Part shown: positions 18,801 through 31,900 of the stretch, in pieces
Numbering within the stretch: the first letter of the stretch is position 1
Layout: every line of letters starts with the position of its first letter
NCBI GenBank assembly: GCA_963802945.1
Contig: CAWDKY010000025.1
Location: 108,317-172,316 of the forward strand
DNA from: an uncultured delta proteobacterium
GTDB lineage: Bacteria > Desulfobacterota > RBG-13-43-22
Reading direction: 5' to 3'
DNA length: 64,000 bases
Translations under genes and position numbers: made by a program
Notes under the pieces: model-generated
Database searches by the model: none
Told to the model about the DNA's origin: nothing
The model's input: only the letters and a program-made list of their open reading frames with translations

Positions 18801-19994
18801 ATGCAACCTTTGTCGGGAATACGGATTCTGGATTTGTCGCGTATGGTGGCCGGCGCCTATTGTTCCCTGATCCTAGGCGATCTGGGGGCCGAGGTGATTA
18901 AAATCGAACAACCTAAGATAGGAGACGATACCCGCCAATGGGGGCCACCCTACATTAACGGGGAGAGCGCTTATTTTCTTTGCATCAACCGGAACAAACA
19001 AAGCCTGACTCTTGATTTTCGGAAGGATAAGGCCAAGGAAATTTTTCTCAGTCTCGTCCGGCAATCCGACGTGGTGATCGAGAATTTTCGTGCCGGGTTC
19101 ATGGAGAAATACGGATTAGGTTATCAGGAGCTCAAGAAAATAAAACCGGATCTGATTTACTGTTCGATCACCGGCTACGGAAGATCCGGACCCTATAAAG
19201 ACCGGCCGGCAACCGACACGGCCATCCAGGCCATGGGAGGTCTCTTCGGCCTGGTCGGCGAGGCTAAGGGGAAACCCTATCGGGTCCCATTACCCATGAT
19301 AGATATGGCCTCAGGCCTCTATGCCCACGGGGCTATTTTAGCTTGCCTGATCAGGCGTGGTCAAGACAAGCAGTCCCATTTCATCGAGGTCTCTCTGATG
19401 GACAATATGCTTTCCCTTCTGCTGAACTTTGGGAGCAACTACCTCTTGACCGGTCAGGTTGAAGAGCGCCAAGGCAATGCCAGTCCCAGCATCGTTCCCT
19501 CAAACGTATTTGAGACCAAAGATCGCCATGTGTTTTTAACTGCCAGCAACGACACCCGATTTAGAAAACTCTGCCAAACCATCGGTCTGGGGCATTTGGC
19601 TGACGATTCGCGATTCACTACAACAGGAGCCCGAATGGAAAACCGTCTGGAATTAGAGAAACTGATCCAGGAAAGGCTGAAAGAGAAGACGGTTGGTGAA
19701 TGGATGGAGTTAATGTATGAAAATGGAGAAGGGATCCCCTTCGCTCCTATCAGAACCCTGGACGAGGTCTTCCAGGACCCCCAGGTCATGGCCCGGGGTA
19801 TCGTCCAGGAAATCCAACATTCGTTGATCGGGACACTGCGGATGATCGGGCCGACCGTTTTATACGACCAGATTCGGGGCCGCGTCCAAATGCCGCCCCC
19901 CAGGTTGGGTGAACACAATCGGGAAATACTGAAAAAATTTCTGGGGTATGATGAAGAACAGATCGGACGACTGGAAAAGGATGGGGTGATTTGA
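18801..19994 (+). CDS. Class III CoA transferase (CaiB/BaiF)
   Basis: PLSGIRILDLSR, GDDTRQWGPP, NRNKQSLTLD, ITGYGRSGPY; AGGAGG RBS before 18801. Confidence 0.93.
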   Translation: MQPLSGIRILDLSRMVAGAYCSLILGDLGAEVIKIEQPKIGDDTRQWGPPYINGESAYFLCINRNKQSLTLDFRKDKAKEIFLSLVRQSDVVIENFRAGFMEKYGLGYQELKKIKPDLIYCSITGYGRSGPYKDRPATDTAIQAMGGLFGLVGEAKGKPYRVPLPMIDMASGLYAHGAILACLIRRGQDKQSHFIEVSLMDNMLSLLLNFGSNYLLTGQVEERQGNASPSIVPSNVFETKDRHVFLTASNDTRFRKLCQTIGLGHLADDSRFTTTGARMENRLELEKLIQERLKEKTVGEWMELMYENGEGIPFAPIRTLDEVFQDPQVMARGIVQEIQHSLIGTLRMIGPTVLYDQIRGRVQMPPPRLGEHNREILKKFLGYDEEQIGRLEKDGVI

Positions 19995-20215
19995 ACATAA
20001 TAGGGAAGCGACTAAACTCATGAAAGAGGACATCGACATCCACATCCAGGTCAGTTTTTATTCACTCTTACGATTTATAAATTATATTTTGGGCAGCAGG
20101 CCCTAACGATTTGACCCTACTACCCCTTTTGATGGCAGGGATTGGATGTCCCTGCCTCTTGATTCTTTCGGGTTCCCAAATAATTTTTGGATCATAAATA
20201 ATTGGTTAGAATAAG

Positions 20216-20310
20216 CTGGGGATACTTCCCGGATTAAATCAGTATCAATGAAATAAGGAAGTGCCTCTGGGTTTTCCTCCCTTTGTCCTTTTTCAAGGGC
20301 TGACCCCGTT
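20216..20310. repeat. REP-like GGGGA(C/T)ACTTC...GAAGTG palindromic element plus a GGGGTCAGCCCTTG motif (left island boundary)
   Basis: ctggggatacttcc...aggaagtgcctctggg; minus-strand aacggggtcagcccttga right after the stop of the 20316 ORF. Confidence 0.5.
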
Positions 20311-20315
20311 GCCTC

Positions 20316-21008
20316 TCACGAAAGTCCAGCCTCTCGGGCACTTCTTGTGCTGAAATCAAGACGCTGATTAACTTCAGATGAAGGTATGACTTCCGAGGTA
20401 ATGTCGAGGAGACTGCCAATAAAGAGTTTTCTAGGCGTGTCGGAACCAGGCTCTACAACAATTCGAAACTCATTTTGATAAGCGAATATTGAACGCTTGC
20501 GGAAGCGCCCAGTTTCACCTGAGTACTCCTCAGCATCGTAGTATTCAACCAGCCCGGCTGTGGGGTTAAGGCCAGCATCCTTAGCAGCACCAAAAACGCG
20601 ATTTAAGAACTCGGTAGGGTTCAAGACAAGCGCGCATGAATCCCCAAACTGAAAATTCTTAGGGTTAACCAATTCCCCATCAACTGGTTTTGTCACGGCA
20701 AACATGCAATACACATTGCATGATGCAGTCCTCTGTAGCCCGATTCGAACCGGTCCGGCCAATTCCAATGGGTTTACGGTGAATTTACCGAGACCTATCT
20801 TACTCCCGTCAAGTATGATTTCGGCATGCTTGGGCTGGATAATGGTTGTCGTTCCCTCAAAGCAGTCGCCTCTTGCCGTATCCGATTCGAGTTTGGCAAA
20901 CTCGGCCAACGACTTCATATATAGCAGCCCCTCCCTACAAAACGCCTGAATGTGCTTTTTTTCCCCAAACTTCAAGAGGGCATAAATTATTTGTTTGGCT
21001 TCTAACAT
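20316..21008 (-). CDS. Hypothetical protein, putative defence-island gene
   Basis: 230 aa; G.LYM..L..F...E...RGD..EG, NVYCM, FRKRSIFAYQNEFR (weak resemblance to the DUF2971-like K...Y..E.R motif). Confidence 0.75.
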   Translation of the reverse strand: MLEAKQIIYALLKFGEKKHIQAFCREGLLYMKSLAEFAKLESDTARGDCFEGTTTIIQPKHAEIILDGSKIGLGKFTVNPLELAGPVRIGLQRTASCNVYCMFAVTKPVDGELVNPKNFQFGDSCALVLNPTEFLNRVFGAAKDAGLNPTAGLVEYYDAEEYSGETGRFRKRSIFAYQNEFRIVVEPGSDTPRKLFIGSLLDITSEVIPSSEVNQRLDFSTRSAREAGLS

Positions 21009-21041
21009 TGATCACCTCTCTGCGGAAATCTCTCGAATGCG

Positions 21042-21174
21042 GCCGGATAGATCTGTGCCTCGTTGAAGCTCACTTGCGAATCGTTCTGGGTTCGGCACAA
21101 CTGATTTGTTCGGCGAGTTTTTCGTGATTCCCATCTCGGCTTCCGCTAGGGCACCATCTGCCCGACTGTTGGGC
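21042..21174 (-). other. Truncated/degenerate attC remnants
   Basis: GCCCAAC inverse core 10 bp after the RM stop, complementary to that cassette's GTTGGGC start; second GCCGAACaaatcagttgtgcc...ggcaca half-site without a GTT core. Confidence 0.55.
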
Positions 21175-21184
21175 GGTGTCATCG

Positions 21185-24061
21185 TCAGGATTCACCTTCA
21201 ACGAGTTTGATTTCTTCTTCCGTAAGGCCGTACAGTTCGTACACCATACGGTCGATCTCCGCGTCGGTCGCCGTGAAGGCATTCTGCAATGCGGCTTTTT
21301 CGGGTTCTGATGTGGCCCCGCGCAGTTTTGGCGTCAGCGCCAGCATCTTCTCCACCAGCAGTACCAGCTTGTCGTGCCGCGCTTTGTCGGACGGCTTTTT
21401 TGAATCAATCTTGGGAAAAGGAAGCTCCCGAGTTTGTTTGATAATCGTTTTTGGAAAGTCGTCGCGACGAGCAACCATGTTAACCTGGCAAAAGAACCAT
21501 GAGATGAGCCGACTATTGAGGATGGCCAGAATACACTTTATATTAGGAAATGTGTTTCGTGGAATCAGGTTTTGAACTGATTGGTTAGTTAAAAATTCTG
21601 CCTCGGAATACACAGCTTGCAGCCGGAATTTTCGGCCGAGTAATTGTCGCAACAGAATCCGCTGTCCGCTGAAGAACTTGATTGGTTTTCTGGCCTCGAT
21701 GTCAGGCGGATAACCTTCATACGCTTCCGGCCCAAGGTCCAACTCATAGCGCAGCATCTCACCATTGAATGCGCGCTTCGGCATTCGGCAATCCTTTGCA
21801 GGACGAGGATTGTAGGTTTCGATGCCTCGCATCACTTCAACCGCCGAGTCCAACATGGCTGGACTTCCCCTGAGCTTCTTCACCAAAGCCGCCTGCTCTT
21901 TGGAAGACAACACCAAGAATTCTTTGTCGGGCGATCCAATCCAGTCAGCGTAGTTGCCTACCTTTCTGAACAAATCAAAATCCTTCGGGCCTTCGACCTT
22001 CCGCCGGATTGGAAAGACGACCAAGTCAACTGTCGTGTCTTCCAAGTCTGTCCATCGTTTATTAGAAACTAAGCGCTGCGCCGTTACAATGATAGTGTCA
22101 ATGTATGCTCCATCGAATACATCGTAAGGAAGCGAAACGAATGACGTTGGACGAAACTGTTCAGCAAATCGTTCGCGAAGCTTTTTTGATGAAGGCGTTG
22201 AAACCCAACCTGACGGAATAATCATACCGAAGTGTCCTTGGGGATTCAGCAAATCACCAGTCTGTTCTACGAACATGATGAACGAGTCGATTGAGTTTGT
22301 GACGGCGCGGAATCTATTTCGAATGTATGCTTCCCACTCTTTATCGAAGTCTGCACCATACGGTGGATTGCCGATGATGGCATCGAAGCCTCCGGTTTTC
22401 ATGGCGTCGGGGAACTGCGCGTGCCAGTCGAAGGCTCGGACGCGGACGAGGTCTTCGGGAATCATGGAGAAGTCGGAGGCGATAAGGGAGTTTCCGCATT
22501 TGATGTTTTGGGATAGATTCGGCAATGCACGTTCGTGGAAGAGGTTCATCTGACGGGAGAGGGTAGTGTCGTTTTCGCCTTCGAGGGCCTTCAGCAGCAA
22601 CGAGAGCTTGGTGGTTTCGACGGCCTGCCGGTCGATGTCAACGCCGTAGATGTGAGTGGTGAGGATGCGTTTGCGTTCGGCGATGGTGAGACGGGTTTCA
22701 CCTTTGGCGTTCTCATAAACGGCTTTGGCGTGTTTTTTGGAGAAGTTGTCCTGATACCATTTCAGGTAATGGTCGAGCAGTAACTGATAGGCGCCGAGGA
22801 GGAAGGAGCCGCTCCCGCATGCCATGTCGAGCACGCGGAAGGAGGGCGTGGTTTTGCCGCCAGCAAGATCGGCGGGGCTTTTGCCTTCAATCTGTTTGCC
22901 GATGGTGTTGAGGACGATGTAGTTCACGATATAGGCGGGGGTGTAGTACACGCCGCCGGCCTTGCGCACTTCGGGCTTTTCCTCTACTTTGGCCTGATGC
23001 CCGGCAGTCAGGCGGATGACTTTGCCGAGGAAGCGTTCGTACACCGTGCCGAGGATTTCCACGGGTAGGACGCCGAAGTTGTACGGACTGCCATGCTCAA
23101 AGTAGAGGCTTTGGAGAATGGGCTTGAGGGCATTATCGTCCACGGCTAGACGCGGCGTTAGCGTGTCCGGCGCATCAGAGACGCCGGGTTCTTTCTGGAA
23201 GTGGAACAGGCCAGAGTTGTATTTCTGATCGGCCTTACGGCACAATCCGTTAATAAAACGGTCGTAAATGGCCGGTTGCACGCAGAGTTTGAGTAGTTGC
23301 CCGTAAGACTCCAGTCCGCGATCCTCGGCCATCCGCAGAAAGATGATCCGGTCAATAATCCGCTGAACGGCGTTGTTGAGGTCCTCTACCGACAAATCGC
23401 TGTTGCGTAGGGCGAGGTTTCGTGCCAGTACATCGCGCCAGCCTTCGATATCCTTCAGAAACTCGCTGTCAACCTCGGAGGTGCCTCGCTTACGTTTGGA
23501 GGCAGCATACTGGTCGAAGTTCCCAGACCAGACGGCCTCGCGCGAGAAAACGTTCCAAATCTCCCGCCAACAGTCAGGATACTCGTTGAACAGGAAATAC
23601 TGGATACGGGCATGGCTGGCCTTATCTCCGGGTCGCGGGCGAGAGGTACAATCGTACACGCCTAGTTCCCCGAAGTCGGTCAGGATAGACAGGGCAAGCT
23701 TGGCGCTGAAGCCGTAACGGCGAAGTTGATAGGCCGGTGCGGGATCGGTGCTGATATTGACGCCGCACTTCTTGGCTTCGACGTAGAACTTCGGCAATGT
23801 GCCGACCCGGAAGGTGTAGTCGGGGGCCTTCTGTTGACCTTCCACATCCAGACTGTCTTCGGGGACGACTTCGCGATATTGGGGTGCTACCATGGTGTCG
23901 TTGCGCACGTCCCAGCCAAGGGCCTCGAAAAAAGGATCTATGAGTGATTGGCGGACGTGGGCTTCCTTGACTCCAGGAGCGAGGTAGGACTGCTGGTTAG
24001 TGGCGAAGTATTGACACAGCTTTGCAACTTCATCTTTGCCTTGATCGAATGTCTTACTCAT
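21185..24061 (-). CDS. Type IIG (fused REase-MTase-TRD) restriction-modification enzyme, Eco57I/TaqI-C-like
   Basis: N-terminal PDY...VEAKK nuclease, GVYYTP, DMACGSGSF (motif I), GNPPY (motif IV), C-terminal ILNSRL...IDRMVYELYGLTEEEI. Confidence 0.92.
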   Translation of the reverse strand: MSKTFDQGKDEVAKLCQYFATNQQSYLAPGVKEAHVRQSLIDPFFEALGWDVRNDTMVAPQYREVVPEDSLDVEGQQKAPDYTFRVGTLPKFYVEAKKCGVNISTDPAPAYQLRRYGFSAKLALSILTDFGELGVYDCTSRPRPGDKASHARIQYFLFNEYPDCWREIWNVFSREAVWSGNFDQYAASKRKRGTSEVDSEFLKDIEGWRDVLARNLALRNSDLSVEDLNNAVQRIIDRIIFLRMAEDRGLESYGQLLKLCVQPAIYDRFINGLCRKADQKYNSGLFHFQKEPGVSDAPDTLTPRLAVDDNALKPILQSLYFEHGSPYNFGVLPVEILGTVYERFLGKVIRLTAGHQAKVEEKPEVRKAGGVYYTPAYIVNYIVLNTIGKQIEGKSPADLAGGKTTPSFRVLDMACGSGSFLLGAYQLLLDHYLKWYQDNFSKKHAKAVYENAKGETRLTIAERKRILTTHIYGVDIDRQAVETTKLSLLLKALEGENDTTLSRQMNLFHERALPNLSQNIKCGNSLIASDFSMIPEDLVRVRAFDWHAQFPDAMKTGGFDAIIGNPPYGADFDKEWEAYIRNRFRAVTNSIDSFIMFVEQTGDLLNPQGHFGMIIPSGWVSTPSSKKLRERFAEQFRPTSFVSLPYDVFDGAYIDTIIVTAQRLVSNKRWTDLEDTTVDLVVFPIRRKVEGPKDFDLFRKVGNYADWIGSPDKEFLVLSSKEQAALVKKLRGSPAMLDSAVEVMRGIETYNPRPAKDCRMPKRAFNGEMLRYELDLGPEAYEGYPPDIEARKPIKFFSGQRILLRQLLGRKFRLQAVYSEAEFLTNQSVQNLIPRNTFPNIKCILAILNSRLISWFFCQVNMVARRDDFPKTIIKQTRELPFPKIDSKKPSDKARHDKLVLLVEKMLALTPKLRGATSEPEKAALQNAFTATDAEIDRMVYELYGLTEEEIKLVEGES

Positions 24062-24103
24062 AAGTGCCCAATCCTTATCCCCGGTTACCCGCAACAATCA
24101 GAC

Positions 24104-24160
24104 GCCCAACATATAAATCAGCCGACACAGAAGGAAGGAGGCTGGATTTTTTTGTTAGCC
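24104..24160 (-). other. Integron attC site (57 bp)
   Basis: GGCTAAC-aaaaa-AATCCAGC-(loop)-GCTGATT-tatat-GTTGGGC: R''/L''/L'/R' boxes, 5-nt spacers, extra base in L'', upstream gene's TAA inside R''. Confidence 0.88.
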
Positions 24161-24934
24161 ATCGGTTACTACTTCCGGCAAACCGAGTTTTCTGCGGTAC
24201 TCGTTGAAGGCCGCGCGTTGATTTGGATCTCTGTGCTTCCAGTAGAACTGGAATTCGTACGGCTTTGCTTCCGGCATCCGAAGATCCTCGGACCGTGCGG
24301 CCATGTCGTCGAACAGCAACTCTACATCGGGCTTGATGGGCTGACCACCTCGCGTCACCGTAGGGTCGTAATCCGGGTACAGGGTCATGTAGTTGGTTCC
24401 CATGCCAATGGCGTTAATGAGATCATGGGCAGCCGTCGCGAGTTCCCGAAGATCTACGAACGTGACCCGGGAATTATTGCTGTTGGACGGCTGGCTGGTG
24501 ATGGCTTCCCTGTCGAGGTGCGCAAAAATACTATGGCGTAGGCGACTGATCCTCCCTTCGATTTGGTTGATTCGGCGATCTACGTCACTGGAGCGCAGCT
24601 TGGCAGCAATCGAGTTTCGCGCAACGTCATCGCGGGCATTCGACATTACCTCGTTCCGAAGTTGACGTAGCGTGAGAGAGTCACCATTCGTATCAAGCAG
24701 AATCCGCCACAGTCCCACGACTACTGCCGTTTCGAGCGATCCACGAACGAGCTTCCAAAACGGCCCCGGATGCTCAACGAAAAGGTCGAAGGGGAACCGC
24801 GCCACATGCTCAAGCACGAACAACGTAGAACGAATTCTTGCCAACTGGTTGTGCAGAACACCGATCTGCGCCTTGTAGGTCGGTATCCAAGACTCGACGA
24901 GTAATTCCTCTGGTCTAAGGTCCATGGTTTTCAC
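24155..24934 (-). CDS. HEPN-domain protein, AbiU2-like (gene cassette)
   Basis: Helical protein with LWRILLDTNGDSLTL and RHSIFAH (Rx4-6H HEPN motif). Confidence 0.75.
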   Translation of the reverse strand: MKTMDLRPEELLVESWIPTYKAQIGVLHNQLARIRSTLFVLEHVARFPFDLFVEHPGPFWKLVRGSLETAVVVGLWRILLDTNGDSLTLRQLRNEVMSNARDDVARNSIAAKLRSSDVDRRINQIEGRISRLRHSIFAHLDREAITSQPSNSNNSRVTFVDLRELATAAHDLINAIGMGTNYMTLYPDYDPTVTRGGQPIKPDVELLFDDMAARSEDLRMPEAKPYEFQFYWKHRDPNQRAAFNEYRRKLGLPEVVTDG

Positions 24935-24938
24935 GTAT

Positions 24939-24975
24939 GGCTAACAATTAATATACGAACTTCGTTTTTTCCTAC
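24939..24975 (-). other. attI-like integration site
   Basis: aaaaaacgaagttcgtatattaattGTTAGCC; the core is the exact complement of cassette-1 R'' (GGCTAAC), with no attC-type inverted repeat upstream. Confidence 0.6.
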
Positions 24976-24987
24976 TTTATACTCTTC

Positions 24988-25028
24988 ATTATAACACCCC
25001 ATTATATTTAAGAAAAGGTAAAAGTCAC
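24988..25028 (-). promoter_or_regulatory. Cassette (Pc-like) promoter(s)
   Basis: Perfect extended -10 TGtTATAAT (24988-24996) and GTGACT-16 nt-TATAAT (25001-25028), both facing the cassettes. Confidence 0.6.
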
Positions 25029-25180
25029 ATAATAATAAATAAATAGCTATGTTCACGACTTCGTATTTTTTGTTGATAAGAAGCAAAAACGATATTCGTA
25101 ATAAATGGAAAGTTTCCCCATTACTATAAAAGGTAATTTGGGGGTGAATTAAAACACGAGGCTGTGTCAAGAAGGAGAAA

Positions 25181-25232
25181 CCGGGGACACTTCTATGATT
25201 AGATCTATTTTTAAAACGGGGGAGGCGTCTTT
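25181..25232. repeat. REP-like GGGGACACTTC element (right island boundary)
   Basis: ccggggacacttctatgatta matches ctggggatacttcccggatta at 20216 in 16 of 21 positions; degenerate partner ggaggcgtct. Confidence 0.45.
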
Positions 25233-25241
25233 AGATTTCTT

Positions 25242-25688
25242 TTAATCTGATCCGTTTCGACTATTTTTACTGTGAACATCGTCTTTTGAGCTCGATGGCT
25301 TGTAATGAGCAAGCCAGAAAAAGGCAAAAGATATTAAAGTGGTAATAAAAGCTATGGTGAAGGCCAGTGATTTCCCGTGCCATAAACCGTCCAACCAAAG
25401 CCTGAATTCAGTAACAAGTACATTGGCCTTTCCGCCATAAAGTTCTAAATCCCGTGAATATTTTTTTGAATCTTCAGGCCTAATTGGATAAACAGATCCA
25501 TTTCCTTCTTCGTAACCCAAAACGTAGTTCGGATTATTATCCGCTGTTTGATAAATCCAAGTGGCGCTAATCAAACCAACCAGGAGGATAACGATGCTGA
25601 GGGCATTGAAATAAACATGCGGATCTTTAATATTCCATATCATATCGTGCCTATTTAAAATCATGTCTTTCTTTGGCTGGACGATCAT
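25242..25688 (-). CDS. Hypothetical 2-TM membrane protein downstream of mdtABC
   Basis: TM - SKKYSRDLELYGGKAN...WLDGLWHGKSLAFTIA - TM. Confidence 0.75.
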   Translation of the reverse strand: MIVQPKKDMILNRHDMIWNIKDPHVYFNALSIVILLVGLISATWIYQTADNNPNYVLGYEEGNGSVYPIRPEDSKKYSRDLELYGGKANVLVTEFRLWLDGLWHGKSLAFTIAFITTLISFAFFWLAHYKPSSSKDDVHSKNSRNGSD

Positions 25689-25689
25689 A

Positions 25690-25790
25690 GATACTGGTTT
25701 CTTGATTCTGGATACTAGATGCTGGATTGGCTTTATCTAGAATCGAGTATCGCTTTTCGTTTTTATCCAGCTTCAAGTATCCAGCATCAT
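25690..25790. repeat. Heptamer tandem-repeat hairpin (GATACTG / ATCCAGC)
   Basis: gatactgg..gattctggatactagatgctggat ... atctagaatcgagtatc ... atccagcttcaagtatccagcatc. Confidence 0.65.
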
Positions 25791-25838
25791 TTCAAAAGAT
25801 TGAGACCACACCATCGTAATCGGGTGTTCTGAATTTTA

Positions 25839-28800
25839 TTACTGCCCTTTGTTCCCCGTTGACCTCAACCCTTTCAGCCAAAGCCTGAACCGGTCAAGAT
25901 ACAGGTACATGACCGGTGTGGTATAGAGGGTAAGTAGTCTGACTGATGACCAGTCCGCCGACGATGGAGATACCCAGGGGGCGACGAATCTCTGAGCCGA
26001 CGCCCCGTCCTAGGGCCAGGGGAACGGCACCGAGCAGAGCCGCCATGGTGGTCATCATAATCGGTCTAAACCGCAACAGACAGGCTTGGTAGATGGCCTC
26101 AACCGGACTTACCCCCCCTTTGCGTTCGGCTTCTACAGCGAAGTCAACCATCATGATGCCGTTTTTTTTGACGATCCCGATAAGCAGGATGATCCCGATA
26201 AAGGAAATGACCGTCAGTTCGGATCGGAAGATCAGGAGGGCCAGGAGCGCCCCTACACCGGCTGAGGGTAAGGTGGACAGGATGGTGAGGGGGTGGATGG
26301 TGCTTTCATAAAGGATGCCGAGTACGATATAGACCGTTATCAGTGCGGCCAGGATCAGAAGGGGTTGGTTGGCTAAAGAGGCCTGGAAAGCCTGGGCCGT
26401 TCCTTGAAAACTGCCATGGATGCCAGCCGGGAGCACCATCTGGTGTGTGGCCGCCTGTACTTCTTCCACGGCCTCACCGAGCGATTTTCCCGGCCGTAAA
26501 TTGAAAGAAGTGGTGACCGAAGGAAACTGGCCCTGGTGATTCACGGCCAACGAGGTGTTATTCCGCTCAAACCGGCTAAAGGCGCTAAGCGGCACCATGG
26601 CTCCGTTGGTGGCGCGGACATAGATATCTCGCAGTGTCTCGGGGTTTTCCCAGAAGGCCGGCTCGACCTCCATCACGACGTGGTATTGATTTAGGAAGGT
26701 ATAGGAGATCGACACCTGCCGCTGGCCGAAGGCGTCATAAAGGACGTCATCGATCATCTGGGGCGTAATGCCGAAGCGCGAGGCCGTATCACGGTCGATG
26801 ACCAAAGTGGCTTCCCGCCCTTTATCCTGCTGGTCACTGCTCACATCAACCAAGGCTGGCAAGGTTCGGAGCCGCTGTAAGATACGCGGGGCCGAGGTAA
26901 CCAAGTCCTTCAAGTTGTCTCCCTGGAGGGTATACTGATACATGGCATTACTTGACCTTCCCCCAATGCGCAGGTCCTGCACCGGTTGAAGATAGGTCGG
27001 GGCCCCCGGTACTTGGTTCAGCTTTTTGCGCAGCCGGGCCATCACCTCGCTGACACTGGCTTTCCGCTTGCCAAAGGGTTTTAAGGAAATAAACATGCTC
27101 GCCTTGTTGGCGGCAGTGCCCCCTCCTCCTCCGCCTCCGGTAAAACCTGAGGCAAAGACTACCTCCGGGTCACTTTTTATGATCTCCAGGACTTTGGTCA
27201 GCTTGGCCTTCATGGCCTGAAAAGATATATCCTGCTCGGCCTGAATGGTTCCGGCAATCCGTCCGGTATCCTGCTCCGGGAAAAAGCCCTTGGGGATAAA
27301 GACAAACAAGACCCCATTGGTCACCACAGTGACCAGCAACACGAGGAGCATCAACCGGGAGTGGCTAAGGGCCCAACGCAGGGTTATTTCATAGCGACGG
27401 TGCATCCAGTTAAAGGCCCCTTCGCTGGCTGCATAGATCCGTCCATGGGCGCCGGTCTTCCCCGGTCTTAAGAACACAGCGCACATCATGGGTGTCGTGG
27501 TCAGCGATATGACCAATGAAACCATAATAGCCGCGGATAGCGTGACGGCGAACTCTCGAAACAGACGGCCTACCATACCGCCCATGAGTAGGATGGGTAG
27601 GAACACGGCCACCAGAGAAGTACTCATGGAAAGAACAGTGAAGCCGATCTCCTGGGCCCCCAGAAAGGATGCCTCAAGGGAGGACATCCCCCCCTCAACA
27701 TGGCGGGTGATGTTTTCGAGTACCACGATGGCGTCATCCACGACAAATCCGGTGGCAATGGTCAGGGCCATCAAAGAAAGATTATCCAGGTTGTAGCCGA
27801 ACAGATACATCACCCCGAAGGTACCCACTAATGAAACCGCCACCGCGACAGCGGGGATGATGGTCGAACGGATGGTTCGCAGAAAGCCGAAGACGACCAG
27901 GATCACGAGGAAAAAAGAGACGATCAGCGATCGTTCAACGTCTCTCAAGGAACCGCGAATCGAAGGAGTTCGGTCCATAACGATGAAAAACTCCACCCCT
28001 CCGGGCATGGCGGCTTGAAGCTGAGGCAGAAGGTCCTTAACACGATCTACCGTCTCGATGATGTTGGCCCCTGGTTGTCTAAAAATAACCACCACCACCG
28101 ACGGTTTTCCATTGACCATTCCGGCAGCGCGCAGATCCTCGAGCGAATCTTCTACCTTGGCTATATCAGGGAGATGCACGGCCGCGCCGCTTCGGTAAGT
28201 GATGATTAAGGGCAGGTACTGGCTGGCGGTCCGCATTTGATCGTTGGTCTGGATCTCCCAGGTCCTGTTTTCACCGTTCAGTTGCCCCTTAGGCCGGTTT
28301 ACATTGGTCTGGCTAAGAACACTTCGGACATCATCCAGACTGATCCCGTATTTGTTGGCCGCATGGGGATTAACATCCACACGCACGGCCGGTAAGGAAC
28401 TGCCGCCGACAAAAACCTGGCCAACCCCTTCGACCTGAGACAGTTTTTGTTGCATAATACTTGAGGCTGCGTCATACATCTGGGCCGGAGTTAAAACGTC
28501 GGAGGTAAGGGCAACGAGCAGCACAGGCGCATCGGCCGGATTGACCTTTCGGTAGATCGGAAGGCTTGGAAGATTGGCCGGCAGAAAACCCCTGGCGGCG
28601 TCGATGGCTGCCTGTACGTCCCGGGCCGCTCCATTGATATTACGGTCCAGATCAAACTGCAGGACGATGGAGGTGGAGCCGCGGAAGCAGGTCGAAGTCA
28701 TTTCCGTGACCCCGGCGATGTGCCCGAACTGCCGCTCCAGCGGCGCGGCCACGGATGTGGCCATGGTTTCGGGATCCGCCCCGGCAAATTCGCCGATACA

Positions 28801-28937
28801 TAGATCGTTGGAAAATCGATCTGAGGCAGGGGTGATACGGGCAGCAGGCGAAAGGCGATTAGGCCGGTCAGCCCCAGACCTATGGTCAAAAGGGTAGTGG
28901 CTACCGGTCGGGTGATAAAGTGGGCGGAAAGATTCAT
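25839..28937 (-). CDS. mdtC: RND efflux permease MdtC-like (frameshifts near 28780 and 25937)
   Basis: [72 protein letters not shown] in shifted frame. Confidence 0.88.
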
Positions 28938-31900
28938 GGCAATTTCAAGGAAGGGTCTTCATGTCTTGATCTTTTTGCAGGACGATTCTTTATCCGTTTA
29001 GCCAACCGATCAAAACCCAGATAAATGACCGGGGTCGTATAGAGGGTTAGAATCTGGCTGATGATCAATCCCCCGACGATGGATATACCCAGTGGGTGTC
29101 GCAACTCCGAACCGACTCCGCCGCCTAAGGCCAGAGGCAGGGCCCCGAGCAGGGCGGCCAGGGTGGTCATCATGATCGGCCGAAATCGCAGGAGAGAGGC
29201 CTGATAAATGGCTTCCACCGCATCCTTACCTTCTTTACGCTCGGCATCGAGGGCGAAATCGACCATCATGATCCCGTTTTTCTTGACGATACCGATCAGC
29301 AGAACGATACCGATCAGGGCAATGACACTGAATTCCGTACCGAACATCAAAAGGGCCAGGATTGCCCCCACACCGGCTGAGGGCAAGGTGGACAGGATGG
29401 TGAGGGGGTGGATGTAGCTTTCATAGAGTATGCCCAGGACGATATAGACGGTGATCAGAGCGGCCAGGATCAGCCAAGGCTCATTGGCCAAAGAGACTTT
29501 AAAGGCCTGGGCCGTTCCTTGAAAGCTGCCCTGGATGCTGGCCGGAAGTCCCAGTTGCTGAGCGGTCGTTTCCACGGCCTCGACGGCCTTTCCCAAAGAG
29601 GCCCCCCGTTCCAGGTTGAAAGAGACGGTCACTGAGGGAAATTGTCCCTGACGGCTGATAAGCAGCGGTCCTGTGGTCTCTGAGATCCGGCTGATGGAAC
29701 TGAGCGGTACCTGACTCCCACTGCTGCCCCGGAGATAGATATCACCCAGTTTGTCGGGATTTTTTTGAAACTCGGGCTTGACCCCCAGAATCACCCGATA
29801 CTGGTTCAACTGGGTAAAGATGGTCGAGACGATCCGCTGACCATAGGCGTTGTAAAGGGTGTCGTCGATGAGCTGAGGCATGATGCCGAAGCGGGAAGCC
29901 GTGCTGCGGTCGATATCTATGGCCAGACGAAGCCCTTTGTCCTGTTGATCGCTGCTCACCTCCTTCAGCTCGGGTCGTTTGCTCAGGGCCTCAACCAGCT
30001 TGGGGGCCCAGGTGTACAACTCGTTGGCATCAGGGTCCTCCATGGTATACTGAAACTGGGTGCGACTGACCCGGGCATCCACCGTCAGATCCTGCACGGG
30101 CTGCATAAAGAGCTTTGACCCCTTCCACTTTGTCCACTTCCCCTTGAAGGCGGTGGATCACCTCGCTGGCACTGATCTTTCGTTCCTCCAAGGGTTTGAG
30201 GTTGATCAGAATACGTCCGCTGTTGAGTGTGGCATTGGTCCCATCTATACCGATGAAGGAAGACAGACTCATCACCGCCGGGTCACGGAGGATGACCTGG
30301 GTTAAGGCCTGCTGACGCCTGGACATAGCCGGAAAAGAGACCGACTGGGGCGCCTCGGAGATACCCAGAATGACCCCTGTATCTTGAACCGGGAAAAAAC
30401 CTTTAGGTACAATCAGGAACAAGACCACGGTGAGGACCAGCGTTCCTACGGCCACAAGCAGAGTGGCCTGCTGACGCAAGAGGACCCATCGCAAGGTCCG
30501 GCCGTAAAAGGCGATAATACGATCGAACATCACTCCGGACGTCCGGTAAAATCTTCCTTGTTTCTCTTTAGGGGTATGTTTAAGTATCTTGGCACACATC
30601 ATGGGGGTTAGGGTCAGCGAAACGACGGCAGAAATGAGGATGGTTACTCCCAGGGTAATGGCAAATTCCCGGAACAATCGGCCCACGACATCACCCATAA
30701 ATAAGAGAGGAATAAGAACGGCGATGAGGGAAACGGTTAAAGACAAAATGGTGAACCCGATCTGTTTTGATCCTTTGAGGGCTGCTTGGAGAGGAGATTC
30801 CCCTTCTTCGATGTACCGGGCAATATTCTCTATCATGACAATAGCGTCATCCACCACAAAGCCGGTTGAAATGGTCAGGGCCATCAGGGAAAGATTGTTC
30901 AGACTAAATCCCAAAAGATACATAACCCCAAAGGTCCCTACCAGAGAAAGCGGGACGGCTACGCTGGGGATGGTCGTGGCCGAAAAATTGCGCAGGAAAA
31001 GAAAGATGACCAGAATGACCAGGGCCACGGCCAGCATCAATTCGAACTGGACATCTCTGACCGAGGCTCGAATGGTCGTCGTCCGGTCGGTCAGTATGGA
31101 AACTTTTATGGCTGGAGGGAGAGAGCTCTGGAGATTGGGCATGAGTCTCTTGATTCGATTAACGACTTCGATGACATTGGCCCCCGGCTGTCGTTGGATA
31201 TTGAGAATCACGGCCGAACTGTTGTTCATCCAGGCCGCCTGTTGTATATTTTCCGCATCATCGATGGCCTCGGCCACGTCGGATATCCTGATCGGGGCCC
31301 CGTTTCGATAACCAACAATCAATGGCCTATACTGATTACTGGAAAAAAGCTGATCATTAGCCCCAATAATGTAAGCTTGGCGAGGGCCGTCAAAGGTGCC
31401 CTTGGCTTGATTGACGTTGGCGTTGGCAATGGAGGACTGCAGGTCTCCCAAAGTCAATCCGTAACTGGCCAGGGTCGTGGGGTTGGCCAGAATCCGGACG
31501 GCCGGTCTTTGCCCGCCGCTGATGCTTACCAGGCCCACACCGGGCAATTGGGAGATCTTTTGGGCAAACCGGGTGTCAGCCAGGTCTTCAATGTCTGGAA
31601 GAGGCAAGGTCTTGGAAGTCAGGGCCAGGGTGAGAATCGGTGCATCAGCCGGATTTACCTTGCTATACACCGGCGGATTGGGAAGATCCTTAGGGAGAAA
31701 GTCAAAGGCCGCATTGATGGAAGCCTGGACCTGTTGTTCGGCTACATCCAGACTGAGTTCTAAGGTGAATTGAAGGGTGATGACCGAACTGCCGCTTGAA
31801 CTGGTAGAGGTCATTTGAGTCAGGCCGGGCATCTGGCCGAATTGGCGTTCTAAGGGGGCGGTCACCGATGAGGCCATCACGTCGGGACTGGCCCCGGGAT

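Follow-up and report, generated by a model that had tools for sequence, protein, structure and literature searches.

In the 64,000-nucleotide (nt) window analysed here, a stretch of contig CAWDKY010000025.1 from an uncultured delta proteobacterium whose genome we call G000, an island on the minus strand (20159..25216, in window numbering, as are all positions below) is very probably what survives of a chromosomal integron (its head and a short array of cassettes) whose family is spread through the phylum. The island is a real integrase-less integron head, akin to the attC-site clusters without an integron-integrase (CALINs), which keeps its candidate cassette promoter (Pc) and its attI and carries defence-type cargo. 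G000 contains the island and the sister genome G005 lacks it. An earlier sequence-only reading had proposed an integrase-less integron-type platform of promoter, attI and an attC-bounded cassette. This interpretation is supported and was largely right, and a check of the sequence found all the elements it named at their minus-strand coordinates.

The head and its repeated copies

The head lies in an AT-rich block (GC content 0.36-0.38 at 24800-25400). Along the minus strand it comprises two upstream TACGAA-type repeats (25100-25090 and 25065-25056, together 25056..25100), which are candidate accessory integrase-binding sites, and an extended -10 box, TGTTATAAT (24996-24988), which matches the consensus and is the candidate Pc. 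An attI core of 28 nt ending in GTT, AAAAAACGAAGTTCGTATATTAATTGTT (24970-24943), follows 18 nt past the -10 box, with AGCC next. The crossover would fall at G|TT in this core (24945|24944), where the attI 7-mer GTTAGCC (24945-24939), the start of the post-core word, begins. Transcription of the array would start from the TGTTATAAT promoter. In attI1 of class 1 integrons the core likewise ends at G|TT and upstream direct repeats bind the integrase. The layout of the window attI is alike, without sequence similarity. Here we infer the binding roles: the attI would be bound and recombined by an integrase, and the TACGAA-type repeats are probably integrase-binding sites.

Comparison of the island with its own genome by BLAST revealed that 24940-25115 recurs on other contigs, and a motif search found ten copies of this promoter-plus-site module in G000. 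In most of the ten a nearly invariant 28-nt core is preceded, at about 24 nt, by a TGnTATAAT-like box, and the TACGAA-type repeats stand at the same places in the aligned copies as well as beside the integrase genes (intI) of two relatives, G033 and G283. The conservation of the module ends exactly after GTT, not at a start codon, and the next sequence differs in every copy. Moreover, the 7-mer beginning with this GTT has its exact complement downstream in six of the ten copies (550-1300 nt away, within a range of 60-1400 nt) and upstream in none. The chance of this per copy is about 0.08, taken as the mean rate of the other 255 NNNNAAC words in the same stretches, which gives a binomial P of 4e-5. 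Behind several heads there are runs of small same-strand open reading frames (ORFs) separated by attC-like sites, and the array on contig C27 contains a four-member family of near-identical attCs. Among the first cassettes at the sibling heads are HNH nucleases, an XhoI-type restriction-modification (RM) pair and a second AbiU2 protein, and also metabolic genes; the defence cargo at the heads is in line with reports that defence systems are frequent in integron cassettes.

Two sibling loci have a special arrangement. On contig C32 of G000 (L023) two heads stand in tandem, at 104885 and 105746, with a spacing of 860 nt. The second has ATT in place of the final GTT, and even so its next 7-mer has a complement 846 nt downstream. 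On contig C72 (L025) the attI core recurs as an inverted, imperfect copy (..TCTAATTAATATACGCGAAAC..) about 1.3 kb past the head, after two metabolic genes, and the first unit is thus flanked by inverted core copies.

The identity of the site follows from its relatives. In G283 (contig C99) the same 17-mer of the core has a divergent, full-length IntI (a frame of 430 amino acids (aa), 414 bits) about 180 nt away, and in G033 (contig C42) a divergent intI of 253 aa with an internal deletion begins about 150 nt from the same core. Because the 17-mer adjoins a full-length divergent IntI in G283, the site in the window, which the sequence-only reading had called attI-like, is a real attI. Within the phylum the 17-mer (at most one mismatch) was found in 39 of 401 genomes and in 27 of 254 genera, against eight matches in seven genomes for a reversed control pattern. 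It is almost invariant across the 27 genera, with the remaining module at 75-83% identity. Other genomes with multiple heads are G378 (11 heads, no intI) and G195 (13 heads, one intI with a stop codon).

The cassettes and their cargo

Cassette 1 holds a gene of the HEPN_AbiU2 type (24155..24925, minus strand, 256 aa; ATG at 24925, TAA at 24157-24155), followed by a 57-nt attC (24104..24160, minus strand; attC1 hereafter). Its outer cores are R'' GGCTAAC (24160-24154) and R' GTTGGGC (24110-24104), its inner boxes L'' ATCCAGCC and L' GGCTGAT. The R'' core includes the stop codon of the HEPN gene and is the exact complement of the attI 7-mer GTTAGCC. The site forms a single imperfect hairpin with one unpaired base in the inner L'' arm; the fold of a 66-nt top strand has -9.3 kcal/mol (z -3.15, one of 200 shuffles being as good) and that of the exact 57-mer -7.0 kcal/mol with 17 pairs. 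The core consensus of attC sites is RYYYAAC for R'' and GTTRRRY for R', with which attC1 agrees at six of seven and seven of seven positions, respectively, in addition to having the hairpin and the extrahelical base. The proposal that cassette 1 ends in an attC with an R'' complementary to the attI core was thereby borne out.

A home-made scan for NNNNAAC...GTTNNNN hairpins finds attC1, against a background of 173 matches in 2.54 Mb of strand (0.068 per kb). The scan matched the opposite strands of arrays about equally often and is therefore unspecific by itself; given this background and the opposite-strand matches, the hairpin alone is weak evidence. It is nevertheless very unlikely that such a hairpin arose by chance in a 94-nt spacer together with an exact complement of the attI 7-mer. 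What makes the case strong is the hairpin taken together with its position and the complement words, as supplied by the comparison of modules. Moreover, the inner boxes ATCCAGCC and GGCYGAT recur in one attC of the C27 array, and a pattern made from them has 13 matches in the genome versus two in the reversed genome.

Cassette 2 contains the gene of a type IIG RM enzyme (21185..24061, minus strand, 958 aa). The word GCCCAAC (21168..21174, minus strand), 10 nt past its stop codon, is the R'' core of this cassette and the exact complement of GTTGGGC; the remaining part of its attC is unrecognisable. The spacer behind the RM gene is filled by a 56-aa frame of the ORF list (21012..21182, minus strand), which matches no family in Pfam, PADLOC, NCBIfam or PHROGs. 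It is followed by gene 3, which encodes a conserved protein of 230 aa (20316..21008, minus strand), and after a spacer of about 160 nt by the end of the island. Just past gene 3 lies a lone GGGTCAGCCCTTGA (20293..20306, minus strand), one arm of a small inverted-repeat element with ten genomic matches, several of which form inverted pairs spaced by about 50 nt; this lone arm may mark a disruption. The word TTCTAAC (20205..20211, minus strand) is the exact complement of GTTAGAA, which overlaps the start ATGTTA of gene 3, and is possibly, and doubtfully, the R'' of a decayed third attC. A scan of 19000-26500 with Rfam found nothing relevant.

The assignment of the RM gene to type IIG is firm. 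It matches PADLOC model PDLC03604 (E 2.4e-177) and the Pfam families HSDR_N, Eco57I, N6_Mtase and TaqI_C, and it combines the fused nuclease, gamma-class methyltransferase and specificity domains by which this type is defined. The HEPN/AbiU2 assignment is supported by one Pfam profile (PF18734, HEPN_AbiU2; E 4.6e-11, 43 bits versus a cut-off of 26.8) and by the motif RHSIFAH, an Rx5H within the range Rx4-6H; PADLOC gave no match for this gene. Both calls of the sequence-only reading agree with these assignments. Gene 3 has 85 homologues of about 230 aa, well conserved and all without a name. Its AlphaFold2 model is of high confidence (mean predicted local distance difference test score, pLDDT, 89), with no match in the Protein Data Bank (PDB) either by Foldseek at E <= 0.001 or by a sequence profile search. 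VIA-align gave weak matches only (Z at most 3.7), mostly to ADP-ribosyltransferase folds, and the conserved Q178-x-E180 would fit this tentative lead. Membership of gene 3 in a conserved two-gene system was considered and rejected, the neighbours of four homologues in Acidobacteria having nothing in common. An anti-phage function of the cargo is predicted from the genes.

The integrase, the empty site and cassette variation

No intI was found in the G000 assembly: the best score with the integron-integrase profile TIGR02249 is 79.6 bits versus a cut-off of 265, and a tblastn search with eight IntI proteins returned only Xer-like genes and short relics. The absence of intI beside the head, as first noticed, thus extends to the whole assembly. 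In this group integron integrases are frequent, with 13 of 41 relatives above the TIGR02249 cut-off but neither G000 nor G005. In fact, the sibling heads in G000 retain traces of the gene. The head on contig C28 keeps an N-terminal relic of intI (64 residues, 56% identity, with stop codons) and the head on contig C14 keeps 22 codons, which gives direct support to the suggestion that the array was left behind by loss of intI. In the window an ATG (25105-25107) stands directly beside the first TACGAA repeat, as it does in the G033, G283, C14 and C28 heads. The stretch that it opens (25105..25216, plus strand) continues in decayed codons, and its translation resembles the intI relics weakly; it may be the final remnant of the divergent intI at its 5' end.

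A second integron family is present in the genus (loci L033, L037 and L038 in G004, G002 and G001), with IntI frames of 493-524 aa. Its head has a TTGTCAAG-N17-TATAAT promoter, and conservation ends at ..TATAATAG|GTTA. In G000 another intI relic is probably present at C41:19294-19371, where 26 residues match the C-terminus of this second IntI type (77-81% identity).

The extent of the island was given by the sister genome. On contig C19 of G005 window position 20158 is joined directly to 25217-25220, with one base (G, minus strand) common to both junctions, and the island therefore takes in all of the cargo, the head and some 110 nt on its upstream side. Among the 13 other genomes of the genus, G005 alone keeps the synteny of the flanks. 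Since no outgroup keeps the flanks together, an insertion in G000 and a deletion in G005 are not separable.

The surroundings of the island contain further repeats. A repeat of 60-70 nt lies just outside it (20046-20118), with four other copies in the genome (77-89% identity), and next to this repeat there is a terminator-like hairpin (20134-20156). On the other side, a repeat of about 100 nt (25690-25808) is rich in CCAGNATC-like words; about 20 partial copies of it occur in the genome, and relatives have further ones. A gene for an AcrB-type transporter (25894-28937, minus strand) is split, by a frameshift or an assembly error: positions 2-55 of the AcrB profile are in a 79-aa ORF (28698-28937) and the remainder in 25894-28764, with a further C-terminal piece at 28934-30106.

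Cassette content was found to vary at the head on contig C15 of G000. This head and its orthologue on contig C105 of G005 are 93% identical up to GTTA; past this point 900 nt in G000 and 2190 nt in G005 are unrelated, after which homology resumes. A cassette starting GTTAGGCaatatt..., which encodes the second AbiU2 protein, lies directly at attI in G005; in G000 it lies directly after an attC, behind two other cassettes. The sister genomes thus differ by whole cassettes at their heads, both being without intI. Environmental sequencing runs add boundaries in the island itself. The cover by their contigs is concentrated on the RM gene, and island parts without such cover do not count as absent. 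In run X3 the match of one contig to the RM cassette ends at 24110, the G of G|TTGGGC, and in run X24 that of one RNA-library contig ends with the final base of the R'' core (21168); head-matching contigs lose the match at 24941 or 24936 in runs X1 and X3. The variation at cassette boundaries, whose absence the sequence-only reading had counted as refuting, was thus observed, with breaks at the predicted G|TT both between G000 and G005 and in the metagenome contigs.

The C15 locus (L041) is composite with respect to G005: its upstream part matches one G005 locus (87%) and the part from the head onward another (92-93%), the loci being on G005 contigs C16 and C105. Such a mosaic suggests an exchange between heads by homologous recombination.

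Competing explanations and known integrons

A course of events that would account for the island is as follows. An integron integrase would have inserted cassette 1 (HEPN/AbiU2) at attI, with the intact 57-nt attC kept. Cassette 2 (type IIG RM) would have been inserted earlier, with its 5' boundary retained and, of its attC, the R'' core, and gene 3 would come next, with uncertain boundaries. The extended -10 promoter would read into the cassettes, and the divergent intI would have been deleted down to its first codons at most.

Several observations weigh against this account. Only one of the three expected attCs folds, sites 2 and 3 being bare core words. For cassette 2, the sequence-only reading was correct in that GTTGGGC and GCCCAAC are exact complements at the predicted places, but no hairpin was found behind GCCCAAC (z +0.32). 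The end of the island has no hairpin either (z +0.77). In the third boundary pair TTCTAAC complements GTTAGAA exactly, yet ATGTTA is also the native start of gene 3 homologues in Acidobacteria outside any array; this and the missing hairpin make the third cassette boundary doubtful. The RM gene has DNA of about 92% identity in G034, a genome of a different family, in a non-integron context and with no attC upstream of the gene there. Individual sequencing runs contained at most a share of 0.09 (9%) of the sampled island words. Moreover, the assembly was obtained as a bin (72 contigs, 6.7% contamination), and an intI may therefore lie on a plasmid or a contig that was not binned. Finally, in a sample of 30 heads from the phylum (one per genome, with about 1.5 kb of context, several loci being cut by contig ends) one head has a full-length IntI, that of G283, and one a 34-residue relic, and no intI lies within about 1.5 kb of the other 28. 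The module thus usually stands alone, and a simple recent loss is not the obvious explanation.

A tentative alternative is that the head is still a working docking site, at which an integrase from an unbinned plasmid, a phage or the DNA of another cell serves the dispersed Pc-attI heads in trans, as a 'distributed' integron. We consider this rather unlikely. The near invariance of the 17-mer across 27 genera, while the module around it drifts, suggests selection on the site; the cassette content of heads differs between two genomes without intI, and many heads without an intact intI occur in several genomes, as in G378 and G195. However, no integrase able to do the work was found, and the decay of attC2 and attC3 is as expected of an idle array. 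The differences in cargo could also predate the loss of intI or come from homologous recombination between heads, a transformation-driven shuffling having been described (PMC12614218); they may reflect trans service, past activity or such exchange between heads. A wider form of the idea, which we regard as improbable at present, is that of a multi-port integron: a single integrase, often on an extrachromosomal element, would serve many promoter-plus-attI heads in the phylum, the 17-mer would be kept by selection, and the island would be a live port that now expresses defence cargo.

The clean empty site in G005 brings up another possibility, namely that the whole unit of intI stump, head and cargo entered the intergenic spacer in a single move, for instance as one large circle that an integrase inserted at a secondary genomic site. 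In that case it would not be what is left of an integron resident there from the start. The one G common to both junctions is what an integrase crossover would leave, and the island ends about 53 nt past the candidate R'' word. Integrases are reported to be able to insert cassettes at genomic sites with the consensus GWT (10.1101/2022.09.11.507474). The empty site, however, reads G-A-G, in agreement with this consensus at two of three positions only, and an overlap of one nt is expected by chance in one of four cases. Furthermore, the third attC, joined by script into the hypothetical circle junction, has no attC fold (z -0.33), and with no outgroup synteny a precise deletion in G005 is equally possible. 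We hold a move in one piece to be doubtful. An explanation outside integrons altogether would be that the repeated block is the shared promoter and operator of a regulon, with incidental GTT/AAC matches. The core contains the palindrome ACGAAnTTCGT, TACGAA half-sites recur upstream and most copies are without an integrase. Against this, conservation stops at GTT and not at a start codon, the complement words are confined to the downstream side, whole cassettes are swapped exactly at GTT, and the block adjoins IntI genes and relics, although a repressor site could still overlap attI. A regulon is accordingly a highly improbable explanation of the block, and the head and short array of a chromosomal integron is the reading that we prefer.

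CALINs are defined as clusters of attC sites lacking an integron-integrase, for which integrase loss was proposed as one origin (Cury et al. 2016, PMC4889954); in the same report intI pseudogenes are given for the vicinity of 15 of 279 CALINs, and attI is described as unknown for most integrons and not searchable. The island resembles a CALIN in being cassette DNA with attC and no nearby intI, and differs in that it keeps an identifiable attI and promoter, with ten such heads in one genome. Because only one attC is well formed, it does not clearly have the two attCs of a CALIN, and current tools would label the locus a CALIN at best. Indeed, since attI is known for few integron classes, integrase-less arrays are normally filed as CALINs without information on the head. 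With the complete integron of G283 the island shares the 17-mer core, the TACGA-type repeats, the -10 box and the geometry to the start codon of intI; the difference is the full-length IntI there, of which the window keeps a start codon at most. Cassettes of both sedentary and mobile integrons are reported to encode anti-phage systems (10.1101/2024.07.02.601686, 10.1101/2024.07.02.601719). The island is similar to these arrays in having defence-type genes (an RM enzyme and an Abi-type HEPN) as cassettes behind a common promoter, here judged from the genes alone, whereas the published arrays sit behind an integrase. A limited search of the related literature gave no occurrence of the phrases 'orphan attI' and 'multiple attI'. 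What is new is a recognisable head (Pc and attI) that is multi-copy (10 here, 13 and 11 elsewhere), mostly without integrase, and with cargo that differs between sister genomes lacking intI.

With these results, the attI and promoter of a whole family of environmental integrons become readable from sequence, and orphan heads can number up to about a dozen per genome. The present locus would be annotated as a decayed integron head that probably drives an AbiU2-type HEPN gene and a type IIG RM enzyme. Two questions thereby become directly testable: whether the heads work in trans, and whether they are maintained as ports for the expression of defence genes.

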